Shown in pieces: positions 16,197 through 44,120 of a DNA stretch of 62,705 bases (positions within the stretch are counted from its first letter, which is position 1; every line of letters begins with the position of its first letter). Both the position numbers and the translations under genes were made by a program. The notes beneath the pieces are model-generated. The model made no database searches. It saw nothing but the letters and a program-made list of their open reading frames with translations, and was not told where the DNA came from. Source of the stretch: a virus. The stretch is taken from the IMG/VR virus record IMGVR_UViG_3300045988_178329, positions 1 through 62,705 of that record; one strand, 5' to 3'.

Positions 16197-16204
16197 GATT
16201 GGTT

Positions 16205-29819: not shown

Positions 29820-30164
29820 ATGGGAAAGGTGATGAAAGTCGGTATATGTAAATATACCGGAGGATATGGATTGTTCGAATTGAGGATCAGGACGAGGGAA
29901 GGGACGATTTGCTGGAAGGTCGACATTGACGAATTCATGAACGGTTGGTTCTCGCTTAGGGAGGACAATCGGAAAAGGGTTCACAGGGCGAGGTGGAACG
30001 GATATATCGACGAATGGGAGAGGAGGCATGGAAGGGAGATGCCAAGGGAGGTAGCCGAGGCGGTGTCAGGGTGGATGCTGGTGCCGAGTACCCTTGAAAG
30101 GGTTGGAAAAAGGCGCGGACATGGTGTAGAATGGTTGATGAGAAGGAAGGTGATGGAGAGATGA
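29820..30164 (+). CDS. hypothetical protein (114 aa)
   Basis: ORF with ribosome-binding site. Confidence 0.45.
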   Translation: MGKVMKVGICKYTGGYGLFELRIRTREGTICWKVDIDEFMNGWFSLREDNRKRVHRARWNGYIDEWERRHGREMPREVAEAVSGWMLVPSTLERVGKRRGHGVEWLMRRKVMER

Positions 30165-30598: not shown

Positions 30599-31272
30599 TC
30601 CTCCAGGACTTGCGCAAGAAGGACGCGTTCCTCTCTTCCGTCGATGAAGAGCAAAGGGACGCCATGGAACTCCTCTATGGCGAGAGTGGGAAGATGATTA
30701 ACAAGCAATCGTTCTCCCAGGCCATAATGGGATCGGAGGCGTTTGCCAAGAGTTCACCACTGATAAGGCCAAAGGTATCCGTACTCAGAAAGCCACTGTC
30801 GCTTGATGAGGATTCGGACAGCAGGGTTGACCTATTTCAGACCGACGGACATTACTACGTAACCTATAACAACGAGTTCAGCTACGAATATCTCTGCAAC
30901 CCGGAAAAGGTGAAGGAGATGCCGTTTGTGGTATCTGGGGACATATTCACTACGAATTCAAGGGTTCCCAATAGGTATCGCGACTACTACCACCTGATGG
31001 CAATGGGGAAACTGATACCGATGCTTGGCACCGTGCTTGAGTTCTCAAACATCTCGAAGGACCTGTTCTTCATGGCTAGGAGAAATCCGATGGTAAGGTT
31101 TCCGTTCTGTTTCGACTTCGTTCGCTATGAGGAGGAAGTTGGTCAGACGCACTTCGTTACCAGAGACCTCTATGGAAAGCAGATAGACTTCGAGAAGGCA
31201 CGGAGCAGCAATCCGGCATACATGTATAGGATCAAGCATGGTCTTGACCCGGTAACCAAGGAGAAGATGTGA
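30595..31272 (+). CDS. hypothetical protein (225 aa)
   Basis: ORF. Confidence 0.5.
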   Translation: MILQDLRKKDAFLSSVDEEQRDAMELLYGESGKMINKQSFSQAIMGSEAFAKSSPLIRPKVSVLRKPLSLDEDSDSRVDLFQTDGHYYVTYNNEFSYEYLCNPEKVKEMPFVVSGDIFTTNSRVPNRYRDYYHLMAMGKLIPMLGTVLEFSNISKDLFFMARRNPMVRFPFCFDFVRYEEEVGQTHFVTRDLYGKQIDFEKARSSNPAYMYRIKHGLDPVTKEKM

Positions 31273-31273
31273 T

Positions 31274-32923
31274 ATGGAATTGACAAAGTACCTAGACACG
31301 ATTGCGTTGTCCTGCCTGGGTTTGCAGAAGGCACCCACCCCACTTGAGCTAGAGAAGGCGGTGTTCACGAACGATTTGGAGGGTGTCCTCCACTATAGGC
31401 TTGCAGAAGGCCGTGCATGGTATTCCGCAGATGACGACGAGATACTTGCCTTCTACAACTATTCGGAGAGGGTGGAGTACAATACCGAACCATATAGGTA
31501 CAAGAACAAGCGTTCGTTCTTCTGGGCACGTTCATCACTCGAGGACGAGATGAAGAGGACGCACAGTGGCTTTGCCCGGGATATTGTCGATACAGACGTT
31601 GCACTCCTTGGGCTTCCTAGGATTAAGGTTGGCGTAAAGAGGAAGCCAGATAGCGACCTTATCGACAGGAAGTACCCAACGCTTGACGGGAAGAAGCCAC
31701 AGGAAGCACTTGATGACATAATGGAATACAATGACCTTCCAAGAATGGTTCAGGAAGAGCAGGAACCACTTACCCTGGTAGACGGTTGGGGGGCGTTCAA
31801 GATTACATGGGGAGAGGAAGCTGACGTGCCTCTAGTCCACTACTATGGCGGAGAGAGGGTTAGGATACACTCCAGGGGAAGCTCCGTATTCGGTATGACA
31901 TTCCTTGACTGGTATTCAGATGCACAGGGGAAGAGATACCTCATAGCCGAGACTAGGCTAATGAAGGACGGAAGGGGAATGATACGCTATAACTGCTTTA
32001 GGGACATCGGAAACGGGACCTTGGCTCCGCTTAGCAGGGAAGAGGCTGCGTTCTTCACCAAGGCGCAGGACCTGGATGACCTGCCGTGCCTATTTGCCGT
32101 TCCTACCTCGTTCTATGCGGACACCCAGAATGGACTTCCGGGAAGAAGCATCTTCAATGGCAAGTACAGTGTCTTTGATGACATAGACCAGGCGTTCTCC
32201 CAATGTGCAAATGCCATTAGGCGTTCCACCCCGGTAGAGAAGTTCGACCTCGACTATTGCGAAAGGGACAAGGATGGCATTGCAAGGATGCCTAAGCTCT
32301 TCGAAAGGAGGTACATTGGAATCCGTGGAATGAAGAACGCCTATGGTGAGAAGTCTGGGGACGATCCGGTAACCGTATCCCAGCCAAGGCTAGACATAGA
32401 AATGTATGTCCGTGCAATAGAACTCAATATGAGGAAGGCAATTAACGGACATTTGTCCCCTACTACCATAGGGCTTGATACCGAGAGGAAGGACAATGCG
32501 GACGCCCAGAGGGAATCCGAGAAGATAACAATCTTCACCATGAAGCATCTTGCAGGTAGGGAAAAGAGGATCCTGGAAAGACTAGCGAACCAACTCCTCA
32601 TCGCCTATGAATACATAACTGCCAAGAACCACGTAATCACCTGCGATGACTATGGTGTCAGTGTCGAGTATGATGAGTTCGGCAACCAGAGCTTCGAATC
32701 CAAGATAACCACACTTGCGACAGTACTTGCAAATGATGGCATATCACCTTCAATGTATGTCTCCAAGGTATATGGAGATTCCATATCAGAGGCAGACAGG
32801 AAGGAGGAAATCAAGTGGCTGGAATCCAAGCACACGCTCGAAACCCCCACCGTGCAAGGCGATAGTAGGGGGAAGGAAGGAAACCTCGACGGACTGCTTG
32901 ATGAAATCGGGGACGGTGAATGA
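31274..32923 (+). CDS. putative portal protein
   Basis: 549 aa, no Walker motifs, immediately upstream of the Mu F/SPP1 gp7-like minor head gene, which is the classic gene order. Confidence 0.4.
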   Translation: MELTKYLDTIALSCLGLQKAPTPLELEKAVFTNDLEGVLHYRLAEGRAWYSADDDEILAFYNYSERVEYNTEPYRYKNKRSFFWARSSLEDEMKRTHSGFARDIVDTDVALLGLPRIKVGVKRKPDSDLIDRKYPTLDGKKPQEALDDIMEYNDLPRMVQEEQEPLTLVDGWGAFKITWGEEADVPLVHYYGGERVRIHSRGSSVFGMTFLDWYSDAQGKRYLIAETRLMKDGRGMIRYNCFRDIGNGTLAPLSREEAAFFTKAQDLDDLPCLFAVPTSFYADTQNGLPGRSIFNGKYSVFDDIDQAFSQCANAIRRSTPVEKFDLDYCERDKDGIARMPKLFERRYIGIRGMKNAYGEKSGDDPVTVSQPRLDIEMYVRAIELNMRKAINGHLSPTTIGLDTERKDNADAQRESEKITIFTMKHLAGREKRILERLANQLLIAYEYITAKNHVITCDDYGVSVEYDEFGNQSFESKITTLATVLANDGISPSMYVSKVYGDSISEADRKEEIKWLESKHTLETPTVQGDSRGKEGNLDGLLDEIGDGE

Positions 32924-33669
32924 ATAGGGACGTAGCTAGGGGAACCAAGGGGACGCTGCTCGCACTGGGCACGTCCCTTTTCTCGGTAGGGACGATCCAA
33001 CATGCAAGGAAGAGCGTCTATGCTTACCTAACCTCCACCGTGCAATGGGCGGATTCCATTGGGCTGCATGGGGTACTGGAAGCTGCCATATCGGTGGCTA
33101 GGACCTATGTAGGGAGGAAGTTGGAGTTCGAGCCAACCTCATTCATGCAGATGGCGTTCCCTAGAATCGTCAAGGCGTTCAACCGTGCAAATAGGCGTAG
33201 GTGGGTTAGGACTAGGAAACTGGACGTAGCCAATACGCTGCGACTTGGGCTTGGTGCCGATAGGGTATTCTTCCTTGTATCGAGCCACCAGAACCCACAA
33301 AAGGCACATGCCCCGTTCCAGGGAAGGATCCTCGTCAACAGCCATTGGAGGTCGCTTGGGGAGGGTTACCGTGCAAGGGTCGGATCGTATGTTAGGAACA
33401 GGAAGGTAATGTCTGTGCAAAGGGCAATGCGTGAACCGTATTACCTGTTCGTCAGACCAAACTGCATGCACTACCTGATTCCACTTGACACAGAAGAAGT
33501 GCTCAGTTCTTCCCCTACTGCCGTTGCAAGGAGGCACCGTGCAACCGAGAGAAGGGTTCGTAGGCCATATACGGACAAGCAACTGTATAGGCAGCGTAGG
33601 GCACTCTACCTCCTAACCCTTGGGTTACTAGAAAAGAAACTTGGGAGAAGTGGGATAAAGGCAAAATGA
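32920..33669 (+). CDS. phage minor head (head morphogenesis) protein, Mu F/SPP1 gp7 family
   Basis: C-terminal ...FQGRILVNSHW...YLFVRPNCMHYLIPL matches the F-like hPNCRC box. Five copies of ACCGTGCAA lie inside this gene. Confidence 0.55.
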   Translation: MNRDVARGTKGTLLALGTSLFSVGTIQHARKSVYAYLTSTVQWADSIGLHGVLEAAISVARTYVGRKLEFEPTSFMQMAFPRIVKAFNRANRRRWVRTRKLDVANTLRLGLGADRVFFLVSSHQNPQKAHAPFQGRILVNSHWRSLGEGYRARVGSYVRNRKVMSVQRAMREPYYLFVRPNCMHYLIPLDTEEVLSSSPTAVARRHRATERRVRRPYTDKQLYRQRRALYLLTLGLLEKKLGRSGIKAK

Positions 33670-33712
33670 AAAAAAGGGTTTGGGATTCAGATCCTAAGCC
33701 CTTTTCCTTTGC
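33668..33712. terminator. bidirectional terminator between convergent modules
   Basis: AAAAAGGGTTTGGG...CCTAAGCCCTTTT hairpin overlapping both stop codons. Confidence 0.5.
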
Positions 33713-34017
33713 GATGAAATCCTCTTTGCCTCCTCTTCGGTTTCCACGAATCGCCCCTTTACATAGTAGTACTTCATACATGTATCCCTGTCTGGGTAGC
33801 CACCGTATTTGTCTGGGCTATCATCTATGAAGCACTCGAACCACTTTGGGGTTTCCCCATCGTAGCCCTCGTACATATGCCCGTAGGCTTCCAGAAACGC
33901 CTCTATGGCCTCTTTTGCAATGTCGATGGATGGAAGTAGCCTCCACCTCCCAATTTGCTCTCCATAGGCCTCAGAATACCTTACAAGGACTGTTGCATCG
34001 TATAGGTATCTATCCAT
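33694..34017 (-). CDS. hypothetical protein (107 aa)
   Basis: ORF on the minus strand. Confidence 0.45.
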   Translation of the reverse strand: MDRYLYDATVLVRYSEAYGEQIGRWRLLPSIDIAKEAIEAFLEAYGHMYEGYDGETPKWFECFIDDSPDKYGGYPDRDTCMKYYYVKGRFVETEEEAKRISSQRKRA

Positions 34018-34198
34018 TGTTTCGCTTTGCCCTCCTTCCCTCGCATATGAAGTCTATCTTTCCCCTCTTGGTGTCGATTACCCTTACATCCCAATTGATG
34101 AGCCTCAGAAGTTTCTTGGCCTTATGGATTGCTGCAATCCTTGTATGGAATATTTCCGTAGGTATTTCAAGCCCTTGGTTAATGATTAGTGAGTACAT
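34010..34198 (-). CDS. hypothetical protein (62 aa)
   Basis: ORF. Confidence 0.35.
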   Translation of the reverse strand: MYSLIINQGLEIPTEIFHTRIAAIHKAKKLLRLINWDVRVIDTKRGKIDFICEGRRAKRNNG

Positions 34199-34203
34199 TT
34201 TCT

Positions 34204-34467
34204 TTACTTAACCTCTCTTACTATCTTTTCGAGAATGATGTTGCCTGTCCTTGTTACATGGTAGGAGAATACGTAAGTCCTACCCTCTTGGATCACATAG
34301 CCAAGTGCAGCATCTGTCTTTGTCTTGGCATTGCTTTCATACCCAGTGGAACTCTCTATTACCGCTGCATAGCGTGGGTTTCCGTAATAGGAGTTGTTTA
34401 GCCTTGTGAGTTCCAAGACCTTGAATGTTCCGTTCATCTTGTTTTTTCCTCCGAACCTTGCTCCCAC
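34204..34467 (-). CDS. hypothetical protein (87 aa)
   Basis: ORF; its sigma70 promoter lies at 34483-34511. Confidence 0.45.
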   Translation of the reverse strand: MGARFGGKNKMNGTFKVLELTRLNNSYYGNPRYAAVIESSTGYESNAKTKTDAALGYVIQEGRTYVFSYHVTRTGNIILEKIVREVK

Positions 34468-34482
34468 TTTGGAAGCATAACC

Positions 34483-34511
34483 ATCTTAAGGGTATTCCAG
34501 AATATTGTCAA
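34483..34511 (-). promoter_or_regulatory. sigma70-like promoter TTGACA-N17-TAAGAT
   Basis: Read on the minus strand; preceded by an AT-rich UP-like tract and a CACCGTGCAA motif at 34565-34574. Confidence 0.55.
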
Positions 34512-34584
34512 GTGTTTTTTAAAAATTTTATTAAAGGTATTAGAAGTAATCGGAGAAACTGTACCACCGTGCAAAACCCTAGCA

Positions 34585-34612
34585 GCAAAAAAAGGGGAGT
34601 GTGTTTCCCCAC
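34585..34612 (-). terminator. rho-independent terminator
   Basis: GGGG-aaacacac-CCCC followed by TTTTTTT on the minus strand. Confidence 0.55.
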
Positions 34613-34615
34613 CCC

Positions 34616-34861
34616 CTAGAGTTCCTCTTCGTAAACCCTATCGATGAACTCCCCTTCTTCTGAACGTTCCTCGATTACGATTTCGGAGTTCGGAAACGGC
34701 TTGCTGCTTTCAAGTTCATCAATTCTGGAATCGACAAAGGCTAGGGCTTCCCTTTCGCTAGGGAAGGAACCAAGCGACATTTCATTGCCGTTTGGTGTCC
34801 CATCTTCCTCGTAGCCTAGTATTACAACCTCGTAAATCATTAGCATACCTCCCATAGCCAT
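34616..34861 (-). CDS. hypothetical acidic protein (81 aa)
   Basis: ORF, Glu/Asp-rich. Confidence 0.45.
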   Translation of the reverse strand: MAMGGMLMIYEVVILGYEEDGTPNGNEMSLGSFPSEREALAFVDSRIDELESSKPFPNSEIVIEERSEEGEFIDRVYEEEL

Positions 34862-35397
34862 CCATCAATGAGGCGTTCCCTATTTGGGTTTAGCCAAACG
34901 ACTTCGCCACTGTACTTGGAATCCACTTCATTTGTGATCCTGAACTTCCCAAGGCTATCGCGTAACGCTCTTGTCATCTTGGCACATGTATCATGGGTTA
35001 GCGTTCCATTTTGGAATACTATGTGTTCGCTAAACTCCATGCCTTCCTCTTCGCTAAACACCTCTATATTACACCCTAGGGAACTTATCTGCCCTAGCGT
35101 AGTTCCCATGAATATTTCAGGGTGTTCCTTGTTGAATTCGTTGTAGTAACTATTCTTGCCAGAAAGCATACAACAATGGACACTCCAAGCACATACACCA
35201 TATGCGTAGAGAACATAACCGTTCGAGGTTTCCTTTATTCCCCCAAACTCATTGTCTACCCTGAAGAAGTGCCTAGCCTTTGGCTTGACATTCTTTAGGT
35301 AGTTATAGTCGCTGTTGTTTAAGGTGGCAAGGAGATATTCAAGAACCTCCCTGTCCTTAGATTTTGCCCTTAATTCGTAGTTGCAATCGTTTGCCAT
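34840..35397 (-). CDS. hypothetical protein (185 aa)
   Basis: ORF. Confidence 0.5.
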   Translation of the reverse strand: MANDCNYELRAKSKDREVLEYLLATLNNSDYNYLKNVKPKARHFFRVDNEFGGIKETSNGYVLYAYGVCAWSVHCCMLSGKNSYYNEFNKEHPEIFMGTTLGQISSLGCNIEVFSEEEGMEFSEHIVFQNGTLTHDTCAKMTRALRDSLGKFRITNEVDSKYSGEVVWLNPNRERLIDGWLWEVC

Positions 35398-35775
35398 TTA
35401 TCTATCCTCCTTGGATTTGATTTCTTCCCTTTCCTTGTCTAACCACTTCTTTAAGGCTTCCCCATCAAATTCGGAAACCATTTTCTTTAGGTTGCCTAGA
35501 TACCTACTTGATTCTGCTAAGTTGCAACCCTTTAGGTAGTGCATGAAGTAGTACTCCACTTGGCTACCGTATTGGTAACGGATAAGGTAGTAGCCACTTG
35601 TTAGGATGCCATTGTATTCAGCGACTAGGTGATCTTGAACCAATTCTTTTTTGATGTCCCTTCCAATATTCCAAGAAGAGTTGTCCCAATTCCTGAAGGT
35701 ACGTTCTAGAGTTTCGGTTGGTTGGGGTATTCCTTCATAGCCCCCAATCGCCTTTAGTTCGGTTTTGATGTGCAT
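35398..35775 (-). CDS. hypothetical protein (125 aa)
   Basis: ORF; promoter TTGACA-N17-TAAGAT at 35808-35836. Confidence 0.5.
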   Translation of the reverse strand: MHIKTELKAIGGYEGIPQPTETLERTFRNWDNSSWNIGRDIKKELVQDHLVAEYNGILTSGYYLIRYQYGSQVEYYFMHYLKGCNLAESSRYLGNLKKMVSEFDGEALKKWLDKEREEIKSKEDR

Positions 35776-35807
35776 GTTCTATGCTCCTTTTCTTCCCCTA
35801 TGGCAAT

Positions 35808-35836
35808 ATCTTAAGTCACTTTGAAATTTGTGTCAA
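35808..35836 (-). promoter_or_regulatory. sigma70-like promoter TTGACA-N17-TAAGAT
   Basis: Canonical spacing on the minus strand. Confidence 0.55.
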
Positions 35837-35889
35837 TAAAAATTTTAAAAAAAGTTTAAACGATATATATGTGTACGCAGAAATCCACC

Positions 35890-36040
35890 CACCGTGCAAT
35901 TAGGAAAGGGGCGCAGATGTCTCTCTTGTGTGGTTATATTTCTCTAAGGACTGCCTACGGTGGGGACAGCAAGGTCTAGTGAGTGGCATACCCATTTCTC
36001 CGATTCTATGGGTAGGGGAAGGATGACCACTTGCACGGTA
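35890..36040. repeat. Inverted-repeat-flanked intergenic unit: CACCGTGCAA, about 130 bp, then TTGCACGGTA
   Basis: 10-bp terminal inverted repeats. The unit sits between the terminator of 36083..36706 and the promoter of 35398..35775. Confidence 0.7.
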
Positions 36041-36043
36041 ACT

Positions 36044-36078
36044 CTTAAAAAGAGTAGGGGAGTTTTGCCCTCCCCCTT
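36044..36078 (-). terminator. rho-independent terminator
   Basis: GGGAG-ggcaaaa-CTCCC followed by a T-run on the minus strand. Confidence 0.5.
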
Positions 36079-36082
36079 TTCC

Positions 36083-36706
36083 CTAGTGGAACTTGAAATA
36101 AACCGACTGCCCTTTTCTTAATGTCCAGCAGGCTAGGCACTCTGGGCAACTCCCACCGCATGGAATGGCGGTCTCTGGGATTTTCGGATTCATCTCCGCT
36201 TTTTTAAAGAACACATAGGCAACGGGGAACTTGTAGGGGTTGTCCACCTTGAACGCCTTAGACCATGCAGAGAACACGATTCTTAAGTTGCTAGGTATCT
36301 TCCCACCGTTTGCAACGTAGCCGTTTACTATGTCAAACTTCTTTGTAAAGCATAGGAACCTAACGCCCTTGCACTTCCTTGCAACCTCTATCATGCCATC
36401 GAAATAGGAAGCGTCTACGATGTCCCCTACAGAATGCCATCTAAAGTACTTATAGGTAACTAGGGAGTTATTAAGGAACGAGGCTATTTCATCAAAGAAG
36501 CCCCTAGGATCTTCCTTGTAGAACAAGGCGTTTGACATGATGGAATTCTGAACGTTCTTGTAGGTGAAATTGCCCTTTTTGCCGTAGCACCCATGAGCAC
36601 ATGGGGCGTCAGCCCTACAGCTGCATTGTGGGGCGAGGTTTACGCTTGGGATTTGGAATCCCAGTTTTGAGTTTGTGGTTGAGATTTTGACTTGCATAAT
36701 TGCCAC
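36083..36706 (-). CDS. Cys-rich protein (two Cys clusters; putative metal or Fe-S binding)
   Basis: CSCRADAPCAHGCYGKKG and CGGSCPECLACW. Confidence 0.5.
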   Translation of the reverse strand: MAIMQVKISTTNSKLGFQIPSVNLAPQCSCRADAPCAHGCYGKKGNFTYKNVQNSIMSNALFYKEDPRGFFDEIASFLNNSLVTYKYFRWHSVGDIVDASYFDGMIEVARKCKGVRFLCFTKKFDIVNGYVANGGKIPSNLRIVFSAWSKAFKVDNPYKFPVAYVFFKKAEMNPKIPETAIPCGGSCPECLACWTLRKGQSVYFKFH

Positions 36707-36808
36707 TCCTTTTTGATGATTACATTCTAATGCATCCCATTATGGAAGTAAAGAGAAAAATAAAAATTTCCTAAATGAGTTTAGAAGTCATCGAATGTCT
36801 GAAACAAC

Positions 36809-36957
36809 CACCGTGCAATTTGATGATAGGGATGGAAAACGGATTTCAAAAAGTACACCAAACCTTCTGGAGAACTTTTGCTGCTGGGGCAAGAAAAGCG
36901 GATGCCGTTCCACCCCCAATTTTGGGGTATGGGGAAATCCGACCTTGGTTGCACGGA
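36809..36957. repeat. Inverted-repeat-flanked intergenic unit: CACCGTGCAA, about 130 bp, then TTGCACGGA
   Basis: Same architecture as 35890-36040. The overlapping short track ORFs 36775..37209, 36788..37018, 36795..37001 and 36878..37081 are considered spurious. Confidence 0.65.
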
Positions 36958-37149
36958 GCACTTCTTTTCGGTTTCCGAACCATTTCAGACAAAAGAGATA
37001 ACAACACAAGATATGCAAATGCCCCTAGAAATCGTTTCTGGGGCGTTCCTATGCGTTTCGTTTCCCTTTGTGGTAATTTAACGCTCTCTAAAGCCTTAAA
37101 AATGAAAAGCCCCCTTTTTCTAGAGGGCTTAGGGATCTCTTTCCCTTTC

Positions 37150-37641
37150 CTAGTTGGCTTTCTTGATTTCGGCTTCCACCTCCTCCCATTCGCTATCTAT
37201 GAAGTCTAGGGCTTCCTCTAGACCGTAATCGATTCTAGAAACCTCTTTACGGTTATTGTTTAGATAGTCGATGAAAGAATCATCGTTGATTGCCTCAAAC
37301 ACAATATCACTGGTTGACTTGGTTTCTATGTGGCCGTATCCGTTGAGCCTGAAATATTCATCGCTCATGTTTACGCTTCCATAGTAGCAGGCCATTAGGG
37401 CATCCCAATGGCTGCTGAAGGTGTTGTCTATTTCCTCATCGTTAAATTCGATGTAGCAATCGCCTGGGTAGTAGTTTCTTAGATAGTCGTTATAGGCATC
37501 TATGACGTCTTGGCTACTTGCTTCGCCTAGGGCGTCCTTTATGAGCGAACGCTCAAGGTTCTCTGAGGAATCGCTTGGGTAACGATTTTCGGCAATGTAT
37601 TCTGCCATTGCCTTGGGGTTTGTGAGTTTTGATAGGTTCAT
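37150..37641 (-). CDS. hypothetical highly acidic protein (163 aa)
   Basis: Asp/Glu-rich ORF; a promoter with A-tract motif lies upstream. Confidence 0.5.
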   Translation of the reverse strand: MNLSKLTNPKAMAEYIAENRYPSDSSENLERSLIKDALGEASSQDVIDAYNDYLRNYYPGDCYIEFNDEEIDNTFSSHWDALMACYYGSVNMSDEYFRLNGYGHIETKSTSDIVFEAINDDSFIDYLNNNRKEVSRIDYGLEEALDFIDSEWEEVEAEIKKAN

Positions 37642-37667
37642 ATTTGTGTCTCCTTTTCAGACAATAC

Positions 37668-37733
37668 CATTATAGAAAATGGGTAGGGTAAGTAAATAGA
37701 AAAGTTAAATTTTTAGGTTCATTTAAGGTTGGC
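37668..37733 (-). promoter_or_regulatory. Promoter region with A-tract motif AACCTTAAATGAACCTAAAAAT, TTTTCTATTTACTT box and TATAAT
   Basis: Minus-strand copy of the 1643 and 17967 element. Confidence 0.55.
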
Positions 37734-37745
37734 TGAAATTCATGG

Positions 37746-37895
37746 TGCCGTGCAATTATAGGGGGTCAAGGAAGCAATGGAAGGCAATGGCTTCGGATTC
37801 ATTTTCTGGCTCAAAAAGGTAGTAGGGATAACTAGGTGTATATTTTATACAGTCGGTTTTGGGGCACTTGGGGAGGGCTGACTTTTTGCACGGTA
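37746..37895. repeat. Inverted-repeat-flanked intergenic unit: GCCGTGCAA, about 130 bp, then TTGCACGGTA
   Basis: Same architecture as 35890-36040. Confidence 0.65.
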
Positions 37896-37902
37896 CGATG
37901 AT

Positions 37903-37934
37903 ACAAAAAAGGAAGGGTGTTTTCCCTTCCCTTT
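37903..37934 (-). terminator. rho-independent terminator
   Basis: GGAAGGG-aaaaca-CCCTTCC followed by TTTTTT on the minus strand. Confidence 0.65.
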
Positions 37935-37939
37935 CAGAC

Positions 37940-38278
37940 TTAATTATCGGTTTCTTCCAACACTTCTTCAATCGCCTTTTGGCAATCTTCCTTGTTAGCA
38001 TAGAAGCCTACAAATGGGTGATACCAGTAAGATCCGACTTCGGCAATTCTCTCTATTGCAAAGTCATCTTCATTTTCATCTTCTTCGGTTTCATAGACTG
38101 TGAAATCATATTCATCGGGTGTGGTGATTTCAACGTTGTTATAGGACTTGTATATCTTTGGATCAAGTTCATCGAATATGGAATCCAATGAATAGAATTC
38201 CCCTTCATAGACAACCTTGTTGTTGTTTCCATAGTCGGTGATTTTAATTGTTTTGCTCTTCATATTTTTTCCTTTCAT
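37940..38278 (-). CDS. hypothetical highly acidic protein (112 aa)
   Basis: ORF rich in Glu/Asp. Confidence 0.5.
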   Translation of the reverse strand: MKGKNMKSKTIKITDYGNNNKVVYEGEFYSLDSIFDELDPKIYKSYNNVEITTPDEYDFTVYETEEDENEDDFAIERIAEVGSYWYHPFVGFYANKEDCQKAIEEVLEETDN

Positions 38279-38332
38279 TGTATGGGAGCTACGGCTTTTG
38301 CATAGCCCCTAGAATTTGTTCGTAGGCAACGC

Positions 38333-38593
38333 CTACATATGTTTTAGGGTGAAACAGTAATCCTTCCAGAAATCTAGAAGGTTTAACTTGTTGTCATACT
38401 TTTCGATGATGTCAGAAATGTCTATTCTTTCATCAAAATGTTGTAGGAAGTAGAGGTATTCATCAAAGAAGTCATAGACTTCGTTTTCGTCAATACCGAA
38501 ACGATTAGAGTAATCGACAGTCATTATGGAATTGAGTGTAACATCTTCCCTAAGCTTGATTACTTGAGATGGCATGAGGTCTTGAATGTGCAT
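38333..38593 (-). CDS. hypothetical protein (86 aa)
   Basis: ORF; promoter TTGACA-N16-TAGAAT at 38622-38649. Confidence 0.45.
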   Translation of the reverse strand: MHIQDLMPSQVIKLREDVTLNSIMTVDYSNRFGIDENEVYDFFDEYLYFLQHFDERIDISDIIEKYDNKLNLLDFWKDYCFTLKHM

Positions 38594-38621
38594 ATTGTTC
38601 CCCCTTTCTTGGGATACACTA

Positions 38622-38649
38622 ATTCTACCATTAACGATATAGTTGTCAA
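38622..38649 (-). promoter_or_regulatory. sigma70-like promoter TTGACA-N16-TAGAAT
   Basis: Minus strand. Confidence 0.5.
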
Positions 38650-38712
38650 TAGGAAAATTAAAAAAAGTTTACAATGATTAGTTCTGAACGGACTTTTTCC
38701 GCGGAATAATGG

Positions 38713-38871
38713 CACCGTGCAACTCAATTGGTTGCCATGTGTGGATTTGGTTTTCTACAAGGTCAGAAGCCTTTCGGCTACCCTTTGCTTCCGTTTGCTT
38801 TTCGCCTACCATAGGCAGCGGTGGAAATGGTGGAGTGGAAGAATTCCCTACCCGATCGGACTTGCACGGTA
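38713..38871. repeat. Inverted-repeat-flanked intergenic unit: CACCGTGCAA, about 140 bp, then TTGCACGGTA
   Basis: Same architecture as 35890-36040. Confidence 0.65.
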
Positions 38872-38917
38872 GCCCCTAGGAAAAAAAGCGCCCTAGGTTT
38901 TTCTAGAGCGTCTTTCC

Positions 38918-39631
38918 CTAAAATGTAATGTTGCTTCTAAACAAGGCTATTACAGGTGTTTCCTCAAAGTTTTTTGTATCGGTACTAACTATGTTTGCAA
39001 CGTATTCGTTTTCGAATTCGCTACTTGGTCCAGAAACAATTCTTATGTACTTTCTACCTAGGTTCTTGGCAACCTTTATTAAATCTTCGAGTTTGCTAAC
39101 GGAAAAGAGCCTATCTATAGTTTGCTCATAGTTTTGGTGGAAGAAACTAAGCTCTACATCATCGAATTCAACATTGTCAAAATATACAACGTCTTTTTCG
39201 ATGGCTTCTAACAAAGAGAAAGAGGCGTATTGTATGCCGTTATGCTTTAGCAACAACAATGTTCTGTAATCACATTCGATCTGGAAATCAAATTCGTACT
39301 TTGGGAAGTTTTTCAACATTTCAGATAGTTTCTTGGTGTTTAGGTCAATTCTGAAATTCTTGCTTACATAGGCTCTGAAAACCTTATGCAAAGGTAGGCA
39401 ATACCTAGTTGAAAAGACATGTATGCAATTTTTGTCCTTTTCGCCTATAATGCTAATTTTACTTTTCATTTCTCCATTCATTTCGCAATTCTGGGAAAAG
39501 GCAACTAGGGTGGAAATGAATTCTTTGTGGGTGGTTAGCCCAAAGTCGGCGGAGGTTTCTTCGAAACCTTGTACCTTGTCAAAGGAAGGTGCTAAGCTTT
39601 CCTTGACTTGGTTAACTGTAAGTTTGTCCAT
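38918..39631 (-). CDS. hypothetical protein (237 aa)
   Basis: ORF with AAAGGAG ribosome-binding site; promoter TTGACA-N16-TAGAAT at 39675-39702. Confidence 0.55.
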   Translation of the reverse strand: MDKLTVNQVKESLAPSFDKVQGFEETSADFGLTTHKEFISTLVAFSQNCEMNGEMKSKISIIGEKDKNCIHVFSTRYCLPLHKVFRAYVSKNFRIDLNTKKLSEMLKNFPKYEFDFQIECDYRTLLLLKHNGIQYASFSLLEAIEKDVVYFDNVEFDDVELSFFHQNYEQTIDRLFSVSKLEDLIKVAKNLGRKYIRIVSGPSSEFENEYVANIVSTDTKNFEETPVIALFRSNITF

Positions 39632-39674
39632 TTGTTCTACTCCTTTAAATGGGTGTTCCTTTTGGAACGATATA

Positions 39675-39702
39675 ATTCTACCATTTCAGATATATGTGTC
39701 AA
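39675..39702 (-). promoter_or_regulatory. sigma70-like promoter TTGACA-N16-TAGAAT
   Basis: Minus strand. Confidence 0.5.
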
Positions 39703-39738
39703 TACTTTTTTAAAACAAAGATTACAATGTATAGTAGC

Positions 39739-39893
39739 CACCGTGCTATTTTTGAAATGGGGTAACGGAAACCCCAGATTTGCAAATGGTGGGAAAACCA
39801 CCTTTCAAAAAACAATAGTCAAAATATAAGCTTAGGAAAATGACACCCCAAATTGTCTAGGGTAGAAAAAAAAGGGGGGTACCTTGCACGGTG
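39739..39893. repeat. Inverted-repeat-flanked intergenic unit: CACCGTGCTA (degenerate), about 135 bp, then TTGCACGGTG
   Basis: Same architecture as 35890-36040. Confidence 0.6.
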
Positions 39894-40027
39894 GCGGATC
39901 CCTGAAATTCTGGAAGCTTTGAAAAATTTTTATAGGGATGTCTGAAACGAGGAAAACCCATAAAAACGGTTTCTAGGCGTTCCTAGGGCTTTTCAGTGTG
40001 GTTAATATAATTTTCCAAACAACAAAA

Positions 40028-40078
40028 GAAAACGCCCCTAGGGGCTTAAAAAAGAGCCGTTTTTTAATTCGGCTCTCT
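40028..40078 (-). terminator. tandem rho-independent terminators
   Basis: AGAGCCG-loop-CGGCTCT followed by TTTTTT, then the palindromic hairpin GCCCCTAGGGGC. Confidence 0.65.
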
Positions 40079-40088
40079 TCCTTAGTTT

Positions 40089-40508
40089 TTAATATCCTAA
40101 ATCTATTACATTTTGTAAAGTTAGGTAAATTATTAATTTAAGCATGAAATCCATTTTATCTTTATTCCATGTTTTCATTTCTTCATCGGTTGCTTCTAGA
40201 ATGTTTCCTAGAATTTCAATAGGCGATTCGGAGTAGTTGAGAATCTTAGGTTTTTTTCCTAGCCATTCTATGAAAGCATCGCTATAAGAGCCATTTTTTA
40301 GACTATATGGATTAAACGGATTAAATTTTACTTCTTCTTCAAATGTTCTATTTATTGCAAGTGCATAATCTCTAAAATCATTAGGGTTATATAATTCGGT
40401 TTTGTCTAGGTGGGTATGTTCCAAGATGAACTTTCTTAATTTTTGGATGGCTTTTGGTGAATTTGCTCTAATCATAATTTTTTCTCTTTCCAAGGGGGCT
40501 TTTTTCAA
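40089..40508 (-). CDS. paralog family C member (139 aa)
   Basis: N-terminus MIRANSPKAIQKLRKFILEH, paralogous to 40522..40896. Confidence 0.5.
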   Translation of the reverse strand: MKKAPLEREKIMIRANSPKAIQKLRKFILEHTHLDKTELYNPNDFRDYALAINRTFEEEVKFNPFNPYSLKNGSYSDAFIEWLGKKPKILNYSESPIEILGNILEATDEEMKTWNKDKMDFMLKLIIYLTLQNVIDLGY

Positions 40509-40521
40509 GCCCCCTATTTCT

Positions 40522-40896
40522 TTATTTAATCGCCTTTCTTACTCTTCTATAAATCATATATGATAATAGGCTTTCGGCTTGGGTTTCGCTAAACCTTGCT
40601 TTTTCTTCCTTGGTTTCTTCCAATATATCGCCTAGGGTTTCAACGGCTGAAACATTGTAATAATAGGAAGTGTCTATAATTGATGGCAACCATTGCAACC
40701 AACTAATGAACGCTTCTTGTTCATTTTGTCTTCTTTCAGATGGGGTGGAGTATACCTCTTTAACGAATTCATCATAGATGGCTTTCATACATTCGTTAGG
40801 GGTGGATGGGGTGAAGTCATAGCCATCAAAGTCGCATCCATCTAAGATGAACTTCTCTAAATTGGCTTGGGCTTTTTTTGAGTTTGTTCTAAGCAT
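40522..40896 (-). CDS. paralog family C member (124 aa)
   Basis: N-terminus MLRTNSKKAQANLEKFILDG; promoter TTGACA-N17-TAACAT at 40924-40952. Confidence 0.5.
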   Translation of the reverse strand: MLRTNSKKAQANLEKFILDGCDFDGYDFTPSTPNECMKAIYDEFVKEVYSTPSERRQNEQEAFISWLQWLPSIIDTSYYYNVSAVETLGDILEETKEEKARFSETQAESLLSYMIYRRVRKAIK

Positions 40897-40923
40897 GATT
40901 TTAACCTCCCTGCTTATGAGAAG

Positions 40924-40952
40924 ATGTTAAACCCATTTCTAAAAGTTGTCAA
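40924..40952 (-). promoter_or_regulatory. sigma70-like promoter TTGACA-N17-TAACAT
   Basis: Minus strand. Confidence 0.5.
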
Positions 40953-41013
40953 TACTTTTTTTAAAACTTTTTTAATACTCCTAGAAATCATCTACACTTT
41001 TTCAGACATCCTT

Positions 41014-41059
41014 TTGCACGGACTAGGGTTTTTGCACGGAGCTTACCTTGTTGCACGGC
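41014..41059. repeat. Three direct copies of TTGCACGG at 18-19-bp spacing
   Basis: TTGCACGGA at 41014 and 41032, TTGCACGGC at 41051. On the minus strand they sit between the terminator of 41104..41325 and the promoter of 40522..40896. Confidence 0.7.
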
Positions 41060-41071
41060 TTTTCTGGGTAA

Positions 41072-41103
41072 TGGAAAAAGAGGGGTTTGTTGTCCCTCCC
41101 TTT
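41072..41103 (-). terminator. rho-independent terminator
   Basis: GAGGG-acaacaaac-CCCTC followed by TTTTT on the minus strand. Confidence 0.5.
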
Positions 41104-41325
41104 TCAGATACCTTCCACACCGTCTAGACCGTCAAGGAACTCTTGGCAAATGGAAGCGGTATCGTCTAACCATTCTTGCCTTTGGCTTTGGGCTTCGGTT
41201 AGTTCGCTTCTTCCTTCATAGGGTTCAATGTCATTGCTAACTTGTTCAATGTGTGATTTGAGAGTGTCAACTATGTTGTAGACACTTCTCAACATTTTGA
41301 TGAAATAGGTTTTTGAGTAAGTCAT
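41104..41325 (-). CDS. hypothetical acidic protein (73 aa)
   Basis: ORF; the upstream region carries four phased AACCT(T)AAA repeats. Confidence 0.45.
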   Translation of the reverse strand: MTYSKTYFIKMLRSVYNIVDTLKSHIEQVSNDIEPYEGRSELTEAQSQRQEWLDDTASICQEFLDGLDGVEGI

Positions 41326-41382
41326 TTTGTGTTCTCCTTTGAACGTCTATATTATATAAAAGTCAATAGAAAAATAAAACAC

Positions 41383-41426
41383 CTTTTAGGTTGATTTAAG
41401 GTTCTTTAAGGTTCATTTTAGGTTGT
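41383..41426 (-). promoter_or_regulatory. Four phased A-tract repeats (AACCTAAAATG, AACCTTAAAG, AACCTTAAATC, AACCTAAAAGG; 10-11-bp period) upstream of a promoter
   Basis: Helically phased A-tracts of the UP-element or curved-DNA type. A CACCGTGCAA-family motif lies at 41440-41449. Confidence 0.55.
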
Positions 41427-41496
41427 CTGAAAAAGCTACTTGCACGGTAACGGATCCATTGAAAAACCCTAGGTTTCCCTAGGGCTTGGGTTTGGA

Positions 41497-41767
41497 TTAG
41501 AAATAACAAGCGTTTCTATATTCCTTCAACATTCTATATTTGTCCTTACCGCAATAGATATGTTGGTCTTTGTATTCTTCCTCTACCAAGCGAGTTTCGA
41601 AGCCATCGAAGAAGTTCATTACTTCCTCTTCATCAATGCCATATTGGTTCTTGTAGCCCCTTCCACCGATGAAATCATTGATGGTGATTTCAAGGTAGAG
41701 ATTCCAAAGTGCATCATTTGGTAAATCACCGATTGTGATTTTTGGGGGTGTTGTTTTCTTTTTCCAT
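41497..41767 (-). pseudogene. frameshifted gene: ATG with strong ribosome-binding site, 13 codons, stop, then continuation in the +1 frame across a C5A5 run
   Basis: On the minus strand: AAAGGGAG-N7-ATG GAA AAA GAA AAC AAC ACC CCC AAA AAT ... TGA. The adjacent frame reads ITIGDLPNDALWNLYLEITINDFIGGRGYKNQYGIDEEEVMNFFDGFETRLVEEEYKDQHIYCGKDKYRMLKEYRNACYF with no start codon of its own. Confidence 0.4.
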
Positions 41768-41814
41768 TTTGTTTTCTCCCTTTGAAACCCCTATTTTTAC
41801 CCCTATTTGATTTC

Positions 41815-42000
41815 TTACCTATCTAGCGACAATTCCACTTGGAACCATGATTTCGCTTCGCCTTTGGACTTAGCCTTAGCCCAAATCCACCTAATCCATT
41901 CGATATGGTTTCCTAGGGGCTTTTCATAGCCTATGGCTTTCTTAGCCCTTAGCAAGGTTTTTTGGTAAGCCTTGACTTGTTTGTTTGTTTCTAGTTTCAT
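41815..42000 (-). CDS. hypothetical basic protein (61 aa)
   Basis: ORF; promoter TTGACT-N16-TATCAA at 42014-42041. Confidence 0.4.
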   Translation of the reverse strand: MKLETNKQVKAYQKTLLRAKKAIGYEKPLGNHIEWIRWIWAKAKSKGEAKSWFQVELSLDR

Positions 42001-42055
42001 AACCCAAACTCCTTTGATAAGAAAAGTTTAAGGAAAGTCAATGATTTTGTAAACA

Positions 42056-42122
42056 TCTTTTAGGTTATTTTTAGGTTGATTTAAGGTTGGACAATTGCCA
42101 GAAACCCATACTTGCACGGTGG
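42056..42122 (-). promoter_or_regulatory. A-tract repeat block (AACCTTAAATCAACCTAAAAATAACCTAAAAG) plus CCACCGTGCAAG motif
   Basis: Same element family as 41383; lies downstream of the terminator at 42130-42160. Confidence 0.5.
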
Positions 42123-42129
42123 CCAGACA

Positions 42130-42160
42130 ATAAAAAATGGGAAGCGTTTTGCTTTCCCAT
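42130..42160 (-). terminator. rho-independent terminator
   Basis: GGGAAAGC-aaaac-GCTTCCC followed by ATTTTTT on the minus strand. Confidence 0.6.
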
Positions 42161-42170
42161 TTGCCTCGCT

Positions 42171-42365
42171 TCATTCGCCTCCTATTAGGCGTTTTGGGTT
42201 GCCTAGCGCCCTTTGAAGTAGTCTTACTTGTGATTCGTTCTCCAAGCGCCAAACAACCTTAGTATGAGATTTGTCAAGCCTTGTTTCAGACATTATCAAA
42301 TCGGCTAGGCATCTATGGGCATAACTCCCCATTTGGTAATTGTTTAAGATTGCGTTTACTTTCAT
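42171..42365 (-). CDS. hypothetical protein (64 aa)
   Basis: ORF with AAAGGAG ribosome-binding site. Confidence 0.4.
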   Translation of the reverse strand: MKVNAILNNYQMGSYAHRCLADLIMSETRLDKSHTKVVWRLENESQVRLLQRALGNPKRLIGGE

Positions 42366-42437
42366 TTTAATTTCTCCTTTGTTCCCCTACGATTATAAGC
42401 ATACACCTGCAAGGGCTCAAATCAACAAAGTGAGAAC

Positions 42438-42496
42438 CATTTTTAGGTTGTTTTAAGGTACAAAAAAATGCCCCATTGGGACATCTTCTTGCACGG
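42438..42496 (-). promoter_or_regulatory. A-tract motif ACCTTAAAACAACCTAAAAAT, terminator hairpin and CCGCCGTGCAAG motif
   Basis: Same element family; terminator ATGTCCC-a-ATGGGGCAT followed by TTTTTTT on the minus strand. Confidence 0.5.
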
Positions 42497-42508
42497 CGGT
42501 GGCCACCA

Positions 42509-42886
42509 CTAGTCCTTCTTGTAGATTTTCCTGAGTTCCTTCTTAACGAGCTTGTAGTCCCTCTTCGGAAGGTCTGAGGTAACGTAGTCTACCATTACCT
42601 CTTCTCCGTTGTAATGACCAACGAATCCGACAAAGGCTGGTTCCCTATCCACGATGTCGATGCAGACTATGATGACTTCCTTGCTCTCCTCGTTGTAGCT
42701 GAACATCACCTGCGAGACAAGTATCTCCTGCCACTTGGAAAGCTGGGATAGGTATCCGCTTGGGTTTGTCCTTGCCATCCTGTTGACCTTCTCCTCCGTA
42801 AAGGTAAGCCAGAGAACGCCATCCACACCTATCGCATTTGCTATCGGCCTATTCAATTTCCACAGTCTCAAATCCTCTATGTTCAT
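42509..42886 (-). CDS. hypothetical protein (125 aa), first gene of the minus-strand module
   Basis: ATG at 42886 with GGAGGAG ribosome-binding site; the longer track ORF extending to 42985 lacks a ribosome-binding site. Confidence 0.5.
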   Translation of the reverse strand: MNIEDLRLWKLNRPIANAIGVDGVLWLTFTEEKVNRMARTNPSGYLSQLSKWQEILVSQVMFSYNEESKEVIIVCIDIVDREPAFVGFVGHYNGEEVMVDYVTSDLPKRDYKLVKKELRKIYKKD

Positions 42887-42921
42887 GTGTCTCCTCCATA
42901 AGGAAATTATACACTTTCCTA

Positions 42922-43165
42922 TTGACTGTGTATACACCAACCTTCGACTTTTTGAAAAATGTGGTACTCTCGGGAGGATGGACATATCTATTTTAATATC
43001 TTTTATATATATCTATAAAAGATATGTAAAATATATATGTAAATGTCAACCTATTCTGTTATGGAAGAAATAAAAAACATTTTGAAAAAATAAAATGTAA
43101 AATAAAAAAGAATTAGGTTTTTTCCACCGTAGAAAAAGTCAATAGCAATTATATATGTAATATAT
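42922..43165. repeat. Copy 2 of the duplicated AT-rich regulatory or origin-like region (copy 1 at 29565..29790), bounded by inverted copies of AAAAAGTGGTACTCTCGG
   Basis: Blocks shared with copy 1, the palindrome GTGTATACAC at 42928-42937, and an inverted-repeat partner at 43176-43196. Confidence 0.6.
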
Positions 43166-43200
43166 AAAAACGCTTCCGAGAGTACCACTTTTTGAGATAA

Positions 43201-43226
43201 CGTAACAAAACGGCAAATTTGTTACG
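43201..43226. promoter_or_regulatory. Perfect 9-bp inverted repeat CGTAACAAA-N8-TTTGTTACG (operator-like) upstream of the late operon
   Basis: Palindrome lying in the divergent control region. Confidence 0.45.
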
Positions 43227-43415
43227 CTAACTCGGTTTTTGACCTATTTCTCCTGTGGTTAAATTTTTGCCTTTCCTTTCTATTTTTCTCGCACGGGTGC
43301 GTACGTGGCACACAAGAAAAGTTTCCAATTTTGTCTGACTTGCCTTAAAATATGATCGAAAGCCATTGGTCGCTAGAAAAAGGCCAAGATTAAACTCGTA
43401 TGGAGAGGGTAAGCC

Positions 43416-44120
43416 ATGGAAGAAGAAAAGAAGATTGAGGAAATCAAATCTGGGGAAACCGAAACCGAGAGGGGACCATTAGACAAGGCAGTGGAGGAAT
43501 CCGTTACCGAACTTGTCGATGGGAACAAGGAGGAGGAGGTTGCCGATACCCAGTCGGCTAGGGAGGGCGAATCTGGAGAGGAAGCCCCAACCGAAACGAA
43601 GGCAGTAGACGAAAGGGCAGAGAAGCCTATGTTCACTCAAAGCCAGGTAAACGAACTCGTGGGGAGGGCAAGGCAGGAAGGCCGTCAGAAGGGCTATGAA
43701 TCCGCCAGGACCGAACTAAGGGAACGCTATGGTGTGGATGGCGACGATGACCTTGACAGGATATTTGCCGACGGAGGTCGCTTCGACGAATTGAGTTCGC
43801 GTTACGAGCAATCGGGAAAGGAACTCGCGGAGGTTAGGGCAGAACTTGCCCTTGCCAGGAGCGGAATAGTCCCCGAACGCCAATCCGATGCACGGGCAAT
43901 ACTTGCAGGCAACGGAATGGACGTAAGCGAGGAAAACATTGCCTCGCTCCTACCGACACATCCAGAGTGGTTGGGAAAGAAGGAGGAGGTTGTCGTTGAG
44001 CCAAAGGTACAGGACAGAGAAATCCCACAGCCGAAGCCTATGGCTGTCGGAATCGAACCGAAGCCGGCAAACGATGACGAGGACATAATGTCCCAGGTAC
44101 TCCAGATGTACAGGCAATAG
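43416..44120 (+). CDS. putative capsid scaffolding protein (acidic, coiled-coil)
   Basis: 234 aa, very acidic, first gene of the late operon, upstream of the putative major capsid gene. Confidence 0.45.
   Translation: MEEEKKIEEIKSGETETERGPLDKAVEESVTELVDGNKEEEVADTQSAREGESGEEAPTETKAVDERAEKPMFTQSQVNELVGRARQEGRQKGYESARTELRERYGVDGDDDLDRIFADGGRFDELSSRYEQSGKELAEVRAELALARSGIVPERQSDARAILAGNGMDVSEENIASLLPTHPEWLGKKEEVVVEPKVQDREIPQPKPMAVGIEPKPANDDEDIMSQVLQMYRQ

Follow-up and report, generated by a model that had tools for sequence, protein, structure and literature searches.

The window analyzed here is the whole of IMG/VR record IMGVR_UViG_3300045988_178329, a viral DNA of 62,705 nucleotides. Since its first 51 nt (1-51) recur at its end (62654-62705), the window represents a complete circular assembly of ~62.65 kb. 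The phage belongs to a widespread, uncultured family with genomes of 60 to 80 kb, known from metagenomes of gut-like and anaerobic origin; its probable hosts are Firmicutes/Clostridia-like. In the window, the head module is split by a 9.3-kb island of small genes, and the subject of this analysis is a short, nonpalindromic DNA word (~9 bp; consensus across the family, aCCGTGC(A/T)A) that forms two converging arrays over the portal gene, the gene that follows it, and the island. The genes concerned are as follows.

31274-32923, plus strand: portal gene (phrog_533, E = 2.9e-33), with four top-strand copies of the word core inside
32920-33669, plus strand: gene for a basic protein of 249 amino acids (g249), weakly similar to minor capsid protein 2, with four exact top-strand copies of the word
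33694-42985, minus strand: the island, ~18 small genes, mostly ORFans, between portal/g249 and the scaffold and major head genes
44573-45841: scaffold and major head genes (phrog_422), beyond the island

All genes from 33694 to 42985 are on the minus strand, and each has a sigma70-like promoter and an intrinsic terminator.

The word is strongly enriched. The exact 8-mer CCGTGCAA was found 22 times in the whole genome against 1.05 expected, and the 10-mer with at most one mismatch was found 21 times against 2.1 expected, a number reached in 0 of 100 shuffles. The core 6-mer CCGTGC occurs 29 times, always within 31031-43890. As the window is a complete circle, the other ~50 kb of the genome is free of the core. 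The median spacing between words is ~350 bp over ~12 kb. The top-strand array runs from the portal region through g249 into the nearer island spacers, while the bottom-strand array runs inward from the far end of the island, and orientation in the window is significantly segregated (area under the curve [AUC] 0.89, p ≤ 0.0002). A word scan gave the following copies, by position.

31031-39748, plus strand: left arm, 15 top-strand core copies
32410, 32850, 33038, 33183, 33369, 33537, 34567, 35892, 36811, 37748, and 38715, plus strand: exact CCGTGCAA of the left arm
39741, plus strand: imperfect copy CCGTGCTA of the left arm, at the start of U5
31031, 31411, and 32084, plus strand: core-only copies of the left arm
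36031-43895, minus strand: right arm
36031, 36949, 37886, 38862, 39884, 41014, 41032, 41051, 41440, 42112, and 42489, minus strand: bottom-strand copies of the right arm (read as TTGCACGG on the plus strand)
43291 and 43890, minus strand: core-only copies of the right arm
41014-41058, minus strand: close triplet of bottom-strand copies

Five spacers of the island carry copies of both orientations around a variable interior (U1 to U5).

35890-36040: U1, top-strand copy at 35892-35899, bottom-strand copy at 36031-36038
36809-36958: U2, top-strand copy at 36811-36818, bottom-strand copy at 36949-36956
37746-37895: U3, top-strand copy at 37748-37755 (10-mer TGCCGTGCAA), bottom-strand copy at 37886-37893
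38713-38871: U4, top-strand copy at 38715-38722, bottom-strand copy at 38862-38869; the interior is absent from the relative that is 90% identical to the window
39739-39893: U5, imperfect top-strand copy at 39741-39748 (CCGTGCTA), bottom-strand copy at 39884-39891

The original prediction, made from the letters alone, had taken these spacers for five discrete units with identical 10-bp inverted termini. All five were placed correctly, and U1, U2, and U4 do start with CACCGTGCAA and end with TTGCACGG(T/A). The exact 10-mer start does not extend to the other two, as U3 begins with TGCCGTGCAA (two mismatches, with the 8-mer intact) and U5 with CACCGTGCTA (one mismatch). The predicted location was borne out, each unit being flanked by a terminator and by the sigma70-like promoter of the next minus-strand gene, with a further ~150 nt after the terminator in the case of U2 and U5. 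As the whole story, the five units are incomplete, for there are 12 further exact copies (32410-34567 on the top strand and 41014-42489 on the bottom strand), five of them within the portal gene or the next gene. The five units are the five spacers in which the top- and bottom-strand arrays overlap and not discrete elements.

The same prediction had likened the units to miniature inverted-repeat elements (MITEs) or attC sites, or alternatively to structured small RNAs (sRNAs), and had reported fragments shared by their interiors. The interiors were found to be unalignable, and the only invariant columns are those of the terminal word. Inverted termini of 8 to 10 bp around 130 to 140 bp, as expected of a MITE, are indeed present in the five spacers; the target-site duplication, however, has a length of 0 in four units and 2 bp in one, the interiors show no homology between copies, many "termini" are solo, and copies lie inside essential genes. 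For attC, the motif RYYYAAC/GTTRRRY is absent within 25 nt of either end on both strands of all units, a conserved hairpin is lacking, the cassettes each have their own promoter and terminator, and no integrase, recombinase, or transposase was found among the open reading frames (ORFs) scanned. For sRNAs closed by a 10-bp stem, some units fold more stably than shuffled sequences. Folding of each unit on both strands gave z values from -0.2 to -5 (lowest for U5) and no common structure, and RNAalifold on the five units and four orthologues gave the invariant terminal stem only, with a consensus energy of -11 kcal/mol. A tRNA scan and Rfam at gathering scores yielded no matches.

The interiors are, moreover, the fastest-evolving DNA of the region. 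In comparison with the 90% relative, they show 79 to 88% identity with indels (U1, 83%), against 94 to 97% for promoters and 90 to 95% for genes, and the word copies, unlike the interiors, are intact. Long ORFs across the units (e.g., 36775-37209) were considered as coding and rejected, being broken by 1-nt indels in that relative. Nor are the units plain terminator hairpins; their arms are 130 to 140 nt apart, and the actual terminators are separate and lie beside them. In the family at large, the inverted geometry is not conserved, and most copies are solo and many are coding. Thus, because the interiors are unalignable and fast evolving and have no conserved fold, target-site duplication, or attC core, literal MITEs, attC sites, and sRNAs were rejected; this set of explanations is largely refuted and very improbable indeed. 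The layout shares with attC, MITE, and repetitive extragenic palindromic or mosaic (REP/BIME) elements the short inverted repeats in extragenic spacers beside terminators and at cassette boundaries. It differs from them in that the word is nonpalindromic, its copies are single and also inside genes, and the attC core and hairpin, integrase, target-site duplication, and internal homology are all missing.

Beside U2 and U5, between terminator and unit, lie two extra noncoding segments of ~150 nt (36960-37107 and 39895-40043). They share a CTAGAAAyCG...TTCCTAkG hairpin followed by (GT)GTGGTAA/GTGTGGTTAA, and the large spacers of a relative that shares 71% portal identity (L122, 6000-6260 and 7480-7700) hold longer versions. 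These segments may be small plus-strand transcription units.

The word sits at defined places relative to the signals of transcription, of which those in the island are listed below.

35808-35836, minus strand: early promoter (TTGACA, 17 nt, TAAGAT), with the top-strand copy of U1 55 nt upstream of the -35 element
34511-34483, 36752-36724, 37696-37669, 38649-38622, 39702-39675, 40952-40924, 42053-42025, and 42420-42392, minus strand: equivalent promoters
36056-36076, minus strand: intrinsic terminator, with the bottom-strand copy of U1 17 nt past the stem
34616-34595, 37130-37107, and 38910-38889, minus strand: other intrinsic terminators

In the right part of the island and in the relative L146, a regular order is seen: terminator, 10 to 17 nt, a co-oriented word, 53 to 75 nt, and the -35 element. 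The stretch of 53 to 75 nt between the word and the -35 element of the near-consensus promoter includes AT-rich, UP-like DNA. For the copies in the right part of the island, all of which follow a terminator, the distance to the next -35 element is 60 to 75 nt. In the five central spacers, a top-strand copy lies 38 to 65 nt from the -35 element and a bottom-strand copy follows the terminator, the two being separated by ~130 nt of unconstrained DNA. All 17 island copies are intergenic, though 70% of the island is coding (P = 1.5e-9). As most island copies come after a terminator and before the next promoter, they are outside the predicted mRNAs.

In the portal gene and g249, the two late genes that adjoin the downstream end of the island, the copies are, by contrast with the island, coding. 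They fall in all three frames (PC, TVQ/TVL, and xRA), and five of the seven Arg-Ala dipeptides encoded there are spelled CGT-GCA, although CGT makes up only ~10% of the Arg codons of the genome. The use of three frames and of a rare Arg codon indicates that selection acts on the DNA.

Two other repeated words were noticed around the island promoters and spacers. The sequence AACCT(T/A)AAA (TTT[AT]AGGTT on the plus strand) is present in two to four repeats at a 10- to 11-bp phase just upstream of several promoters (37711-37743, 41384-41437, 42058-42101, and 42441-42473, and on the plus strand at 17967/17978, 22841/22852, and 1653). It is co-oriented with the gene, also occurs outside the island, and may be a phased bending or UP-like element or the site of a second regulator. 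The 8-mer TTTCAGAC (or its complement) has nine copies in the genome, eight of which are in island spacers or gene ends (36797-42284).

The conservation of the word was analyzed in 96 loci, which came from portal homologues, their contigs, and scans of IMG/VR and GTDB genomes. A raw pattern scan of IMG/VR gave mostly chance matches and revealed the 90% relative. No cultured relative was found in INPHARED by DNA or by portal protein (identity of 26% or less). About 34 loci were word positive, with a portal identity of at least ~35% and a GC content of 29 to 57%. They contain 16 to 31 core copies past the portal start, against ~1 to 3 expected in most and more in GC-rich loci, and essentially none upstream of it; one GC-rich member uses the variant CCGTGCTC. 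Some coding sites occupy orthologous positions in different relatives, one such place being the conserved YYRA of the portal protein.

In every word-positive locus, the orientations follow the order +++...(mixed)...---, several with a clean switch. Segregation was observed in all 24 relatives tested (AUC 0.75 to 1.0), with p ≤ 0.001 in 22 of them. The inverted pairing of U1 to U5 is not kept: the spacers of the relative with 71% portal identity hold direct repeats, and in AT-rich relatives the word pairs are everted and 25 to 66 bp apart. About 72% of the family's copies are co-oriented with neighboring genes, according to crude gene calls. In relatives with a clean switch, such as L146, word orientation matches transcription perfectly, whereas the window has six anti-oriented spacer copies. 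Distant relatives with a portal identity of 27 to 34% have a compact module of TerL, portal, g249, scaffold, and major capsid protein genes, with neither the island nor the word, so the arrays go with the island. Candidates for a substitute polar word in this word-negative clade showed no positional or orientation pattern and were rejected. Contig ends were likewise discarded as physical genome ends, being inconsistent between near-identical contigs.

Outside its domain, the word is avoided. Upstream sequence of 21 relatives, 154 kb in total, had 0 core copies against 35.4 expected, making the core the most depleted of 60 6-mers of the same composition. In the window alone it was also found 0 times outside the domain (10.7 expected), but 6 of 60 comparable 6-mers were absent there as well; for this reason, the claim of avoidance rests on the family-wide test.

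A protein that might read the word is encoded close to the left arm.

30131-30598, plus strand: gene for a helical protein of 155 amino acids, ~1 kb upstream of the portal gene, a candidate word reader

Among portal relatives, homologues of this protein were found in word-positive loci only, and three were retrievable. Its AlphaFold2 model has a predicted local distance difference test score (pLDDT) of 59, and the best fold match has an E value of 0.45, with many of the weak matches being to helix-turn-helix (HTH) domains. A profile match to FIS in the PDB (E = 0.1) was obtained, and the HTH similarity is not significant. As evidence for a TerS or an HTH protein, these data are suggestive only. 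A second candidate, the GP88-like gene (36083-36706, minus strand), is the only well-conserved gene of the island. It was rejected as the word reader because elsewhere it lies beside NAD-salvage and RNA-ligase genes without word enrichment. Two Cys clusters, CxCx5Cx3C and Cx3Cx2Cx2C, are present in this protein of the GP88 family (PF17338), which shows 50 to 75% identity across many phages, far better conservation than that of the portal protein. Its position beside NAMPT/NAD-synthase and RNA-ligase genes in larger phages suggests that it may be an anti-defense or repair enzyme. Other conserved phage proteins that are candidate readers are g114 (29820-30164), g225 (30595-31272), g249, and the C-terminal and HBD parts of the primase-polymerase described below.

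A signal that is unique to one domain, avoided elsewhere in both orientations, and present in many dispersed copies might nucleate or mark a domain-wide process, such as packaging, a centromere-like or silencing complex, or guidance of a translocase or nuclease to a switch point in the manner of Chi or FtsK-orienting polar sequences (KOPS). The convergent arrangement resembles KOPS-to-dif or Chi-to-terminus layouts, and the gene for the putative DNA-binding protein, confined to word-bearing relatives, adjoins the array. We nevertheless consider this quite unlikely. Chi and KOPS are genome wide and not confined to a domain, and a host-specific word of either kind would hardly keep the same core over hosts with a GC content of 29 to 57%. 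Genes for ParA/ParB, FtsK-like proteins, or recombinases were not detected. As for packaging, an HNH endonuclease gene, a 405-bp noncoding gap, and an ORF of 191 amino acids overlapping the start of TerL are found at 14395-16199. A cos site typically lies in such a setting, which suggests that packaging starts there and not in the island; the HNH gene, gap, and TerS-like and TerL genes together occupy 14.4 to 17.8 kb.

The word also coincides with some breakpoints of gene gain and loss. The units had been predicted to mark the cassette boundaries of a mosaic accessory region, and this was partly right, because two clean indels between the window and its 90% relative (IMGVR_UViG_3300045988_178073) break inside word-containing direct repeats.

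38722-39748, minus strand: cassette of 1,017 bp present in the window only, comprising the U4 interior, a terminator, a gene (38918-39631), and a promoter

Both ends of this cassette are in direct copies of CACCGTGC(A/T)A, with a 9-bp overlap. Conversely, the relative has an extra cassette of 1,328 bp at window position ~41034 (41032-41045), flanked by TTGCACGGAGCTTG. A search of relatives for cassette variation, as had been proposed, thus revealed two clean gains or losses. In the close pair L148/L163, two more junctions are 0 to 3 bp from a word, and by a rough count across close pairs, ~6 island junction endpoints are within 5 bp of a word, against ~1 expected. Most island rearrangements between close relatives break elsewhere, several of them ~100 to 120 bp away in conserved promoters. 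The gene at 40089-40508 has unrelated sequence in its place in the 90% relative (L028, 725-990); this swap breaks at the terminator and hairpin and not at the word, so cassette replacement uses other boundaries too.

It is tempting to regard the word as the dedicated crossover site of a phage recombination system that shuffles promoter-gene-terminator cassettes. There is one word per cassette boundary, the junctions of the two clean indels lie inside word repeats with 9 to 14 bp of identity, and a PDDEXK exonuclease and a Sak single-strand annealing protein are among the phage gene products. Such a role is nonetheless distinctly improbable. The 8 to 12 conserved copies inside essential genes (the portal gene and the next gene), where recombination would be lethal, argue against a dedicated site-specific system. 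Furthermore, the mirror-image arms would permit inversions, no recombinase of any of the kinds sought was present among the scanned ORFs, and the predominance of off-word breaks fits generic short-homology recombination. As reported previously for the promoter(early)-stem-loop (PeSL) cassettes of T4-type phages, recombination between repeated boundaries creates indels between close relatives (PMC2839356). We read the turnover of the island in the same way, as short-homology recombination that would use whatever is repeated. As a by-product, direct word copies served in the two events above as short-homology junctions for the gain or loss of promoter-gene-terminator cassettes. As in PeSL cassettes, the ORFans of the island, a hypervariable region, each have a strong sigma70-like early promoter in front and a stem-loop terminator behind, and boundary repeats (here the word in two events and promoters in other pairs) explain its indels. 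Unlike them, it has an extra polar 9-mer between terminator and promoter, arranged in mirror-image arrays, and two conserved structural genes are filled with the word as well; moreover, these phages are not relatives of T4.

The replication genes of the phage bring in the main rival explanation. An 864-amino-acid protein with primase-polymerase (prim-pol), HBD, D5_N, and SF3 helicase domains is encoded in the genome (9148-11742) and matches NrS-1 primase structures with E values of 1e-31 to 1e-44. The word could therefore be an initiator iteron or priming signal for an NrS-1-like prim-pol with a D5/P4-type SF3 helicase, with mirror-image arms that would direct loading or priming away from the island, over a broad bidirectional initiation zone, or would mark the place where forks meet. 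The P4 alpha protein binds octamer iterons in ori and in the distant crr, which are separated clusters of opposite orientation. It is a primase, SF3 helicase, and winged-helix protein in one (PMC2777425). The HBD domains of pRN1 ORF904 and NrS-1 Pol recognize the template sequence 5'-GTG-3', with the start immediately 5' of it (PMC8718748); the invariant CC-GTG-C of the word holds this GTG, and the preceding CC would template a purine start. An initiator signal whose ectopic copies are harmful would also fit the avoidance of both orientations outside the domain, as well as the location of the island sites in nontranscribed DNA.

On balance, this explanation is unlikely. The 25 to 30 sites spread over ~12 kb at the spacing given above are unlike compact iteron origins, no adjacent AT-rich unwinding element is evident, and the presence of one site per promoter/terminator boundary is left unexplained. 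In addition, the word-negative relative L211 has a prim-pol-helicase of the same type (35% identical over 835 amino acids) and only one core copy in 21 kb. The GC skew at fourfold sites (GC4 skew), taken as a guide to the direction of replication, differs across the island by 0.15 (confidence interval, 0.02 to 0.34), a weak difference that is confounded by gene class. In comparison with P4 ori/crr and AEP prim-pols, the likeness lies in an octamer repeated in separated clusters of opposite orientation, an encoded primase and SF3 helicase protein, and GTG in the core (PMC8718748), and the differences lie in copies over 12 kb rather than a few hundred base pairs, one per transcription-unit boundary, and in the same prim-pol type in a relative without the word.

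We tentatively favor another reading, although its chances are clearly short of even: the words may be polar roadblock or insulator sites, putatively bound by a protein, at the boundaries of a convergently transcribed early island. We commit to it because the stoperators of Cluster A mycobacteriophages are the closest described system and Ter fork traps share the logic of opposed groups. One conserved, sequence-specific, phage-encoded DNA-binding protein would read the word ACCGTGCAA. The asymmetry of the site and the mirror-image layout suggest that it would act directionally, and the bound protein would be a polar roadblock or insulator to whatever machinery travels along the DNA. The first candidate target would be RNA polymerase that leaves or enters the convergently transcribed island; replication forks may be a target as well.

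The Tus-Ter system of Escherichia coli and the RTP-Ter system of Bacillus subtilis consist of polar sites in two opposed groups and can block RNA polymerase directionally. The arrays described here similarly form two opposed groups of polar sites around a point. The sites are much shorter and far denser, however, their arms overlap, they are carried by a phage, and fork arrest is putative; no Tus or RTP homologue was detected in the phage. In L5-type phages, the repressor binds as a monomer to asymmetric 13-mers, of which there are more than 20, located in promoters and in the short gaps between genes; the orientation of these sites follows transcription, and they are inactive when reversed (PMC9283540). 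The present word is likewise a short asymmetric site with more than 20 copies (29 for the core) in short intergenic spaces, and as in stoperator genomes, where orientation flips with transcription between the arms, a phage-encoded reader is presumed (PMC9283540). In contrast, the site here is 8 to 9 bp and not 13 bp, with an unrelated sequence, about a quarter of the copies are anti-oriented, and no repressor homologue or lysogeny module was found in the phage. Stoperators belong to phages of mycobacterial hosts, and blocking by the present sites is putative.

Several observations weigh against the polar roadblock. Whereas stoperators are genome wide, all sites here fall within ~12 kb, or ~20% of the genome, and are avoided elsewhere, and many are inside two late genes. 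The harmless orientation is avoided outside the domain along with the other, and a purely polar roadblock would leave this unexplained. Some 28% of copies point against their neighboring genes, and a copy's position with respect to the switch point is no worse a guide to its orientation than gene direction. Finally, the 155-amino-acid candidate reader rests on a co-occurrence that is confounded by clade, with a mediocre model and no significant fold match.

A literature search on the word strings returned primers only, and no description of the word or of the layout was found. The components resemble known kinds, namely, polar protein sites and promoter-terminator cassettes, but their combination appears to be new: a domain-restricted, mirror-polar array in coding and noncoding DNA that is excluded elsewhere and conserved in the family. 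It is possible, if rather doubtful, that these are the parts of a previously undescribed, family-defining cis-acting system, in which converging 9-mer arrays and a new phage reader make a directional trap or a unique domain and also set the breakpoints of accessory genes. An example could be a replication or transcription fork trap, the first to be encoded by a phage. If the roadblock reading holds, one short word and its putative reader would organize the early (host-takeover and anti-defense) island of a widespread family, and the stoperator/Ter principle of direction-specific protein roadblocks would reach a new phage group in a domain-restricted form. One 9-mer and a few conserved candidate proteins would then offer a handle on clashes of island with late transcription or replication, and the word would be a sequence signature for spotting such islands and cassette boundaries in metagenomes. 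It would also be a concrete case of a functional site doubling as microhomology for accessory-gene turnover.

Some further features were observed in the window. An AT-rich divergent control region (42990-43400) lies between the island and the scaffold gene; it includes a 20-nt palindrome (42991-43030) and a 21-nt inverted repeat (42956-42976 and 43173-43193) whose arms are separated by 196 nt. Plus-strand genes outside the island, at 24307-24927 and 26493-27281, specify anti-Thoeris domains of the Tad2-like and Tad3-like types. The GGCC-containing 6-mers GGCCCT and TGGCCC were each found 0 times outside 30.9 to 44.0 kb, against 21 to 23 expected, which suggests avoidance of GGCC restriction sites. 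The phage carries a C5-cytosine methylase of 566 amino acids (20177-21877) and an N6/N4 methylase (23222-23854).

The half-site of the word was also seen in L031 (IMGVR_UViG_2974764196_000001, 3440-3640), an unrelated GC-rich viral contig, where six tandem palindromes of the form (A/T)TGCACGG-N3-CCGTGCAA(C) are spaced by ~35 bp. There, the same half-site would be used as a conventional dimer operator or iteron array, and the resemblance is probably a coincidence.

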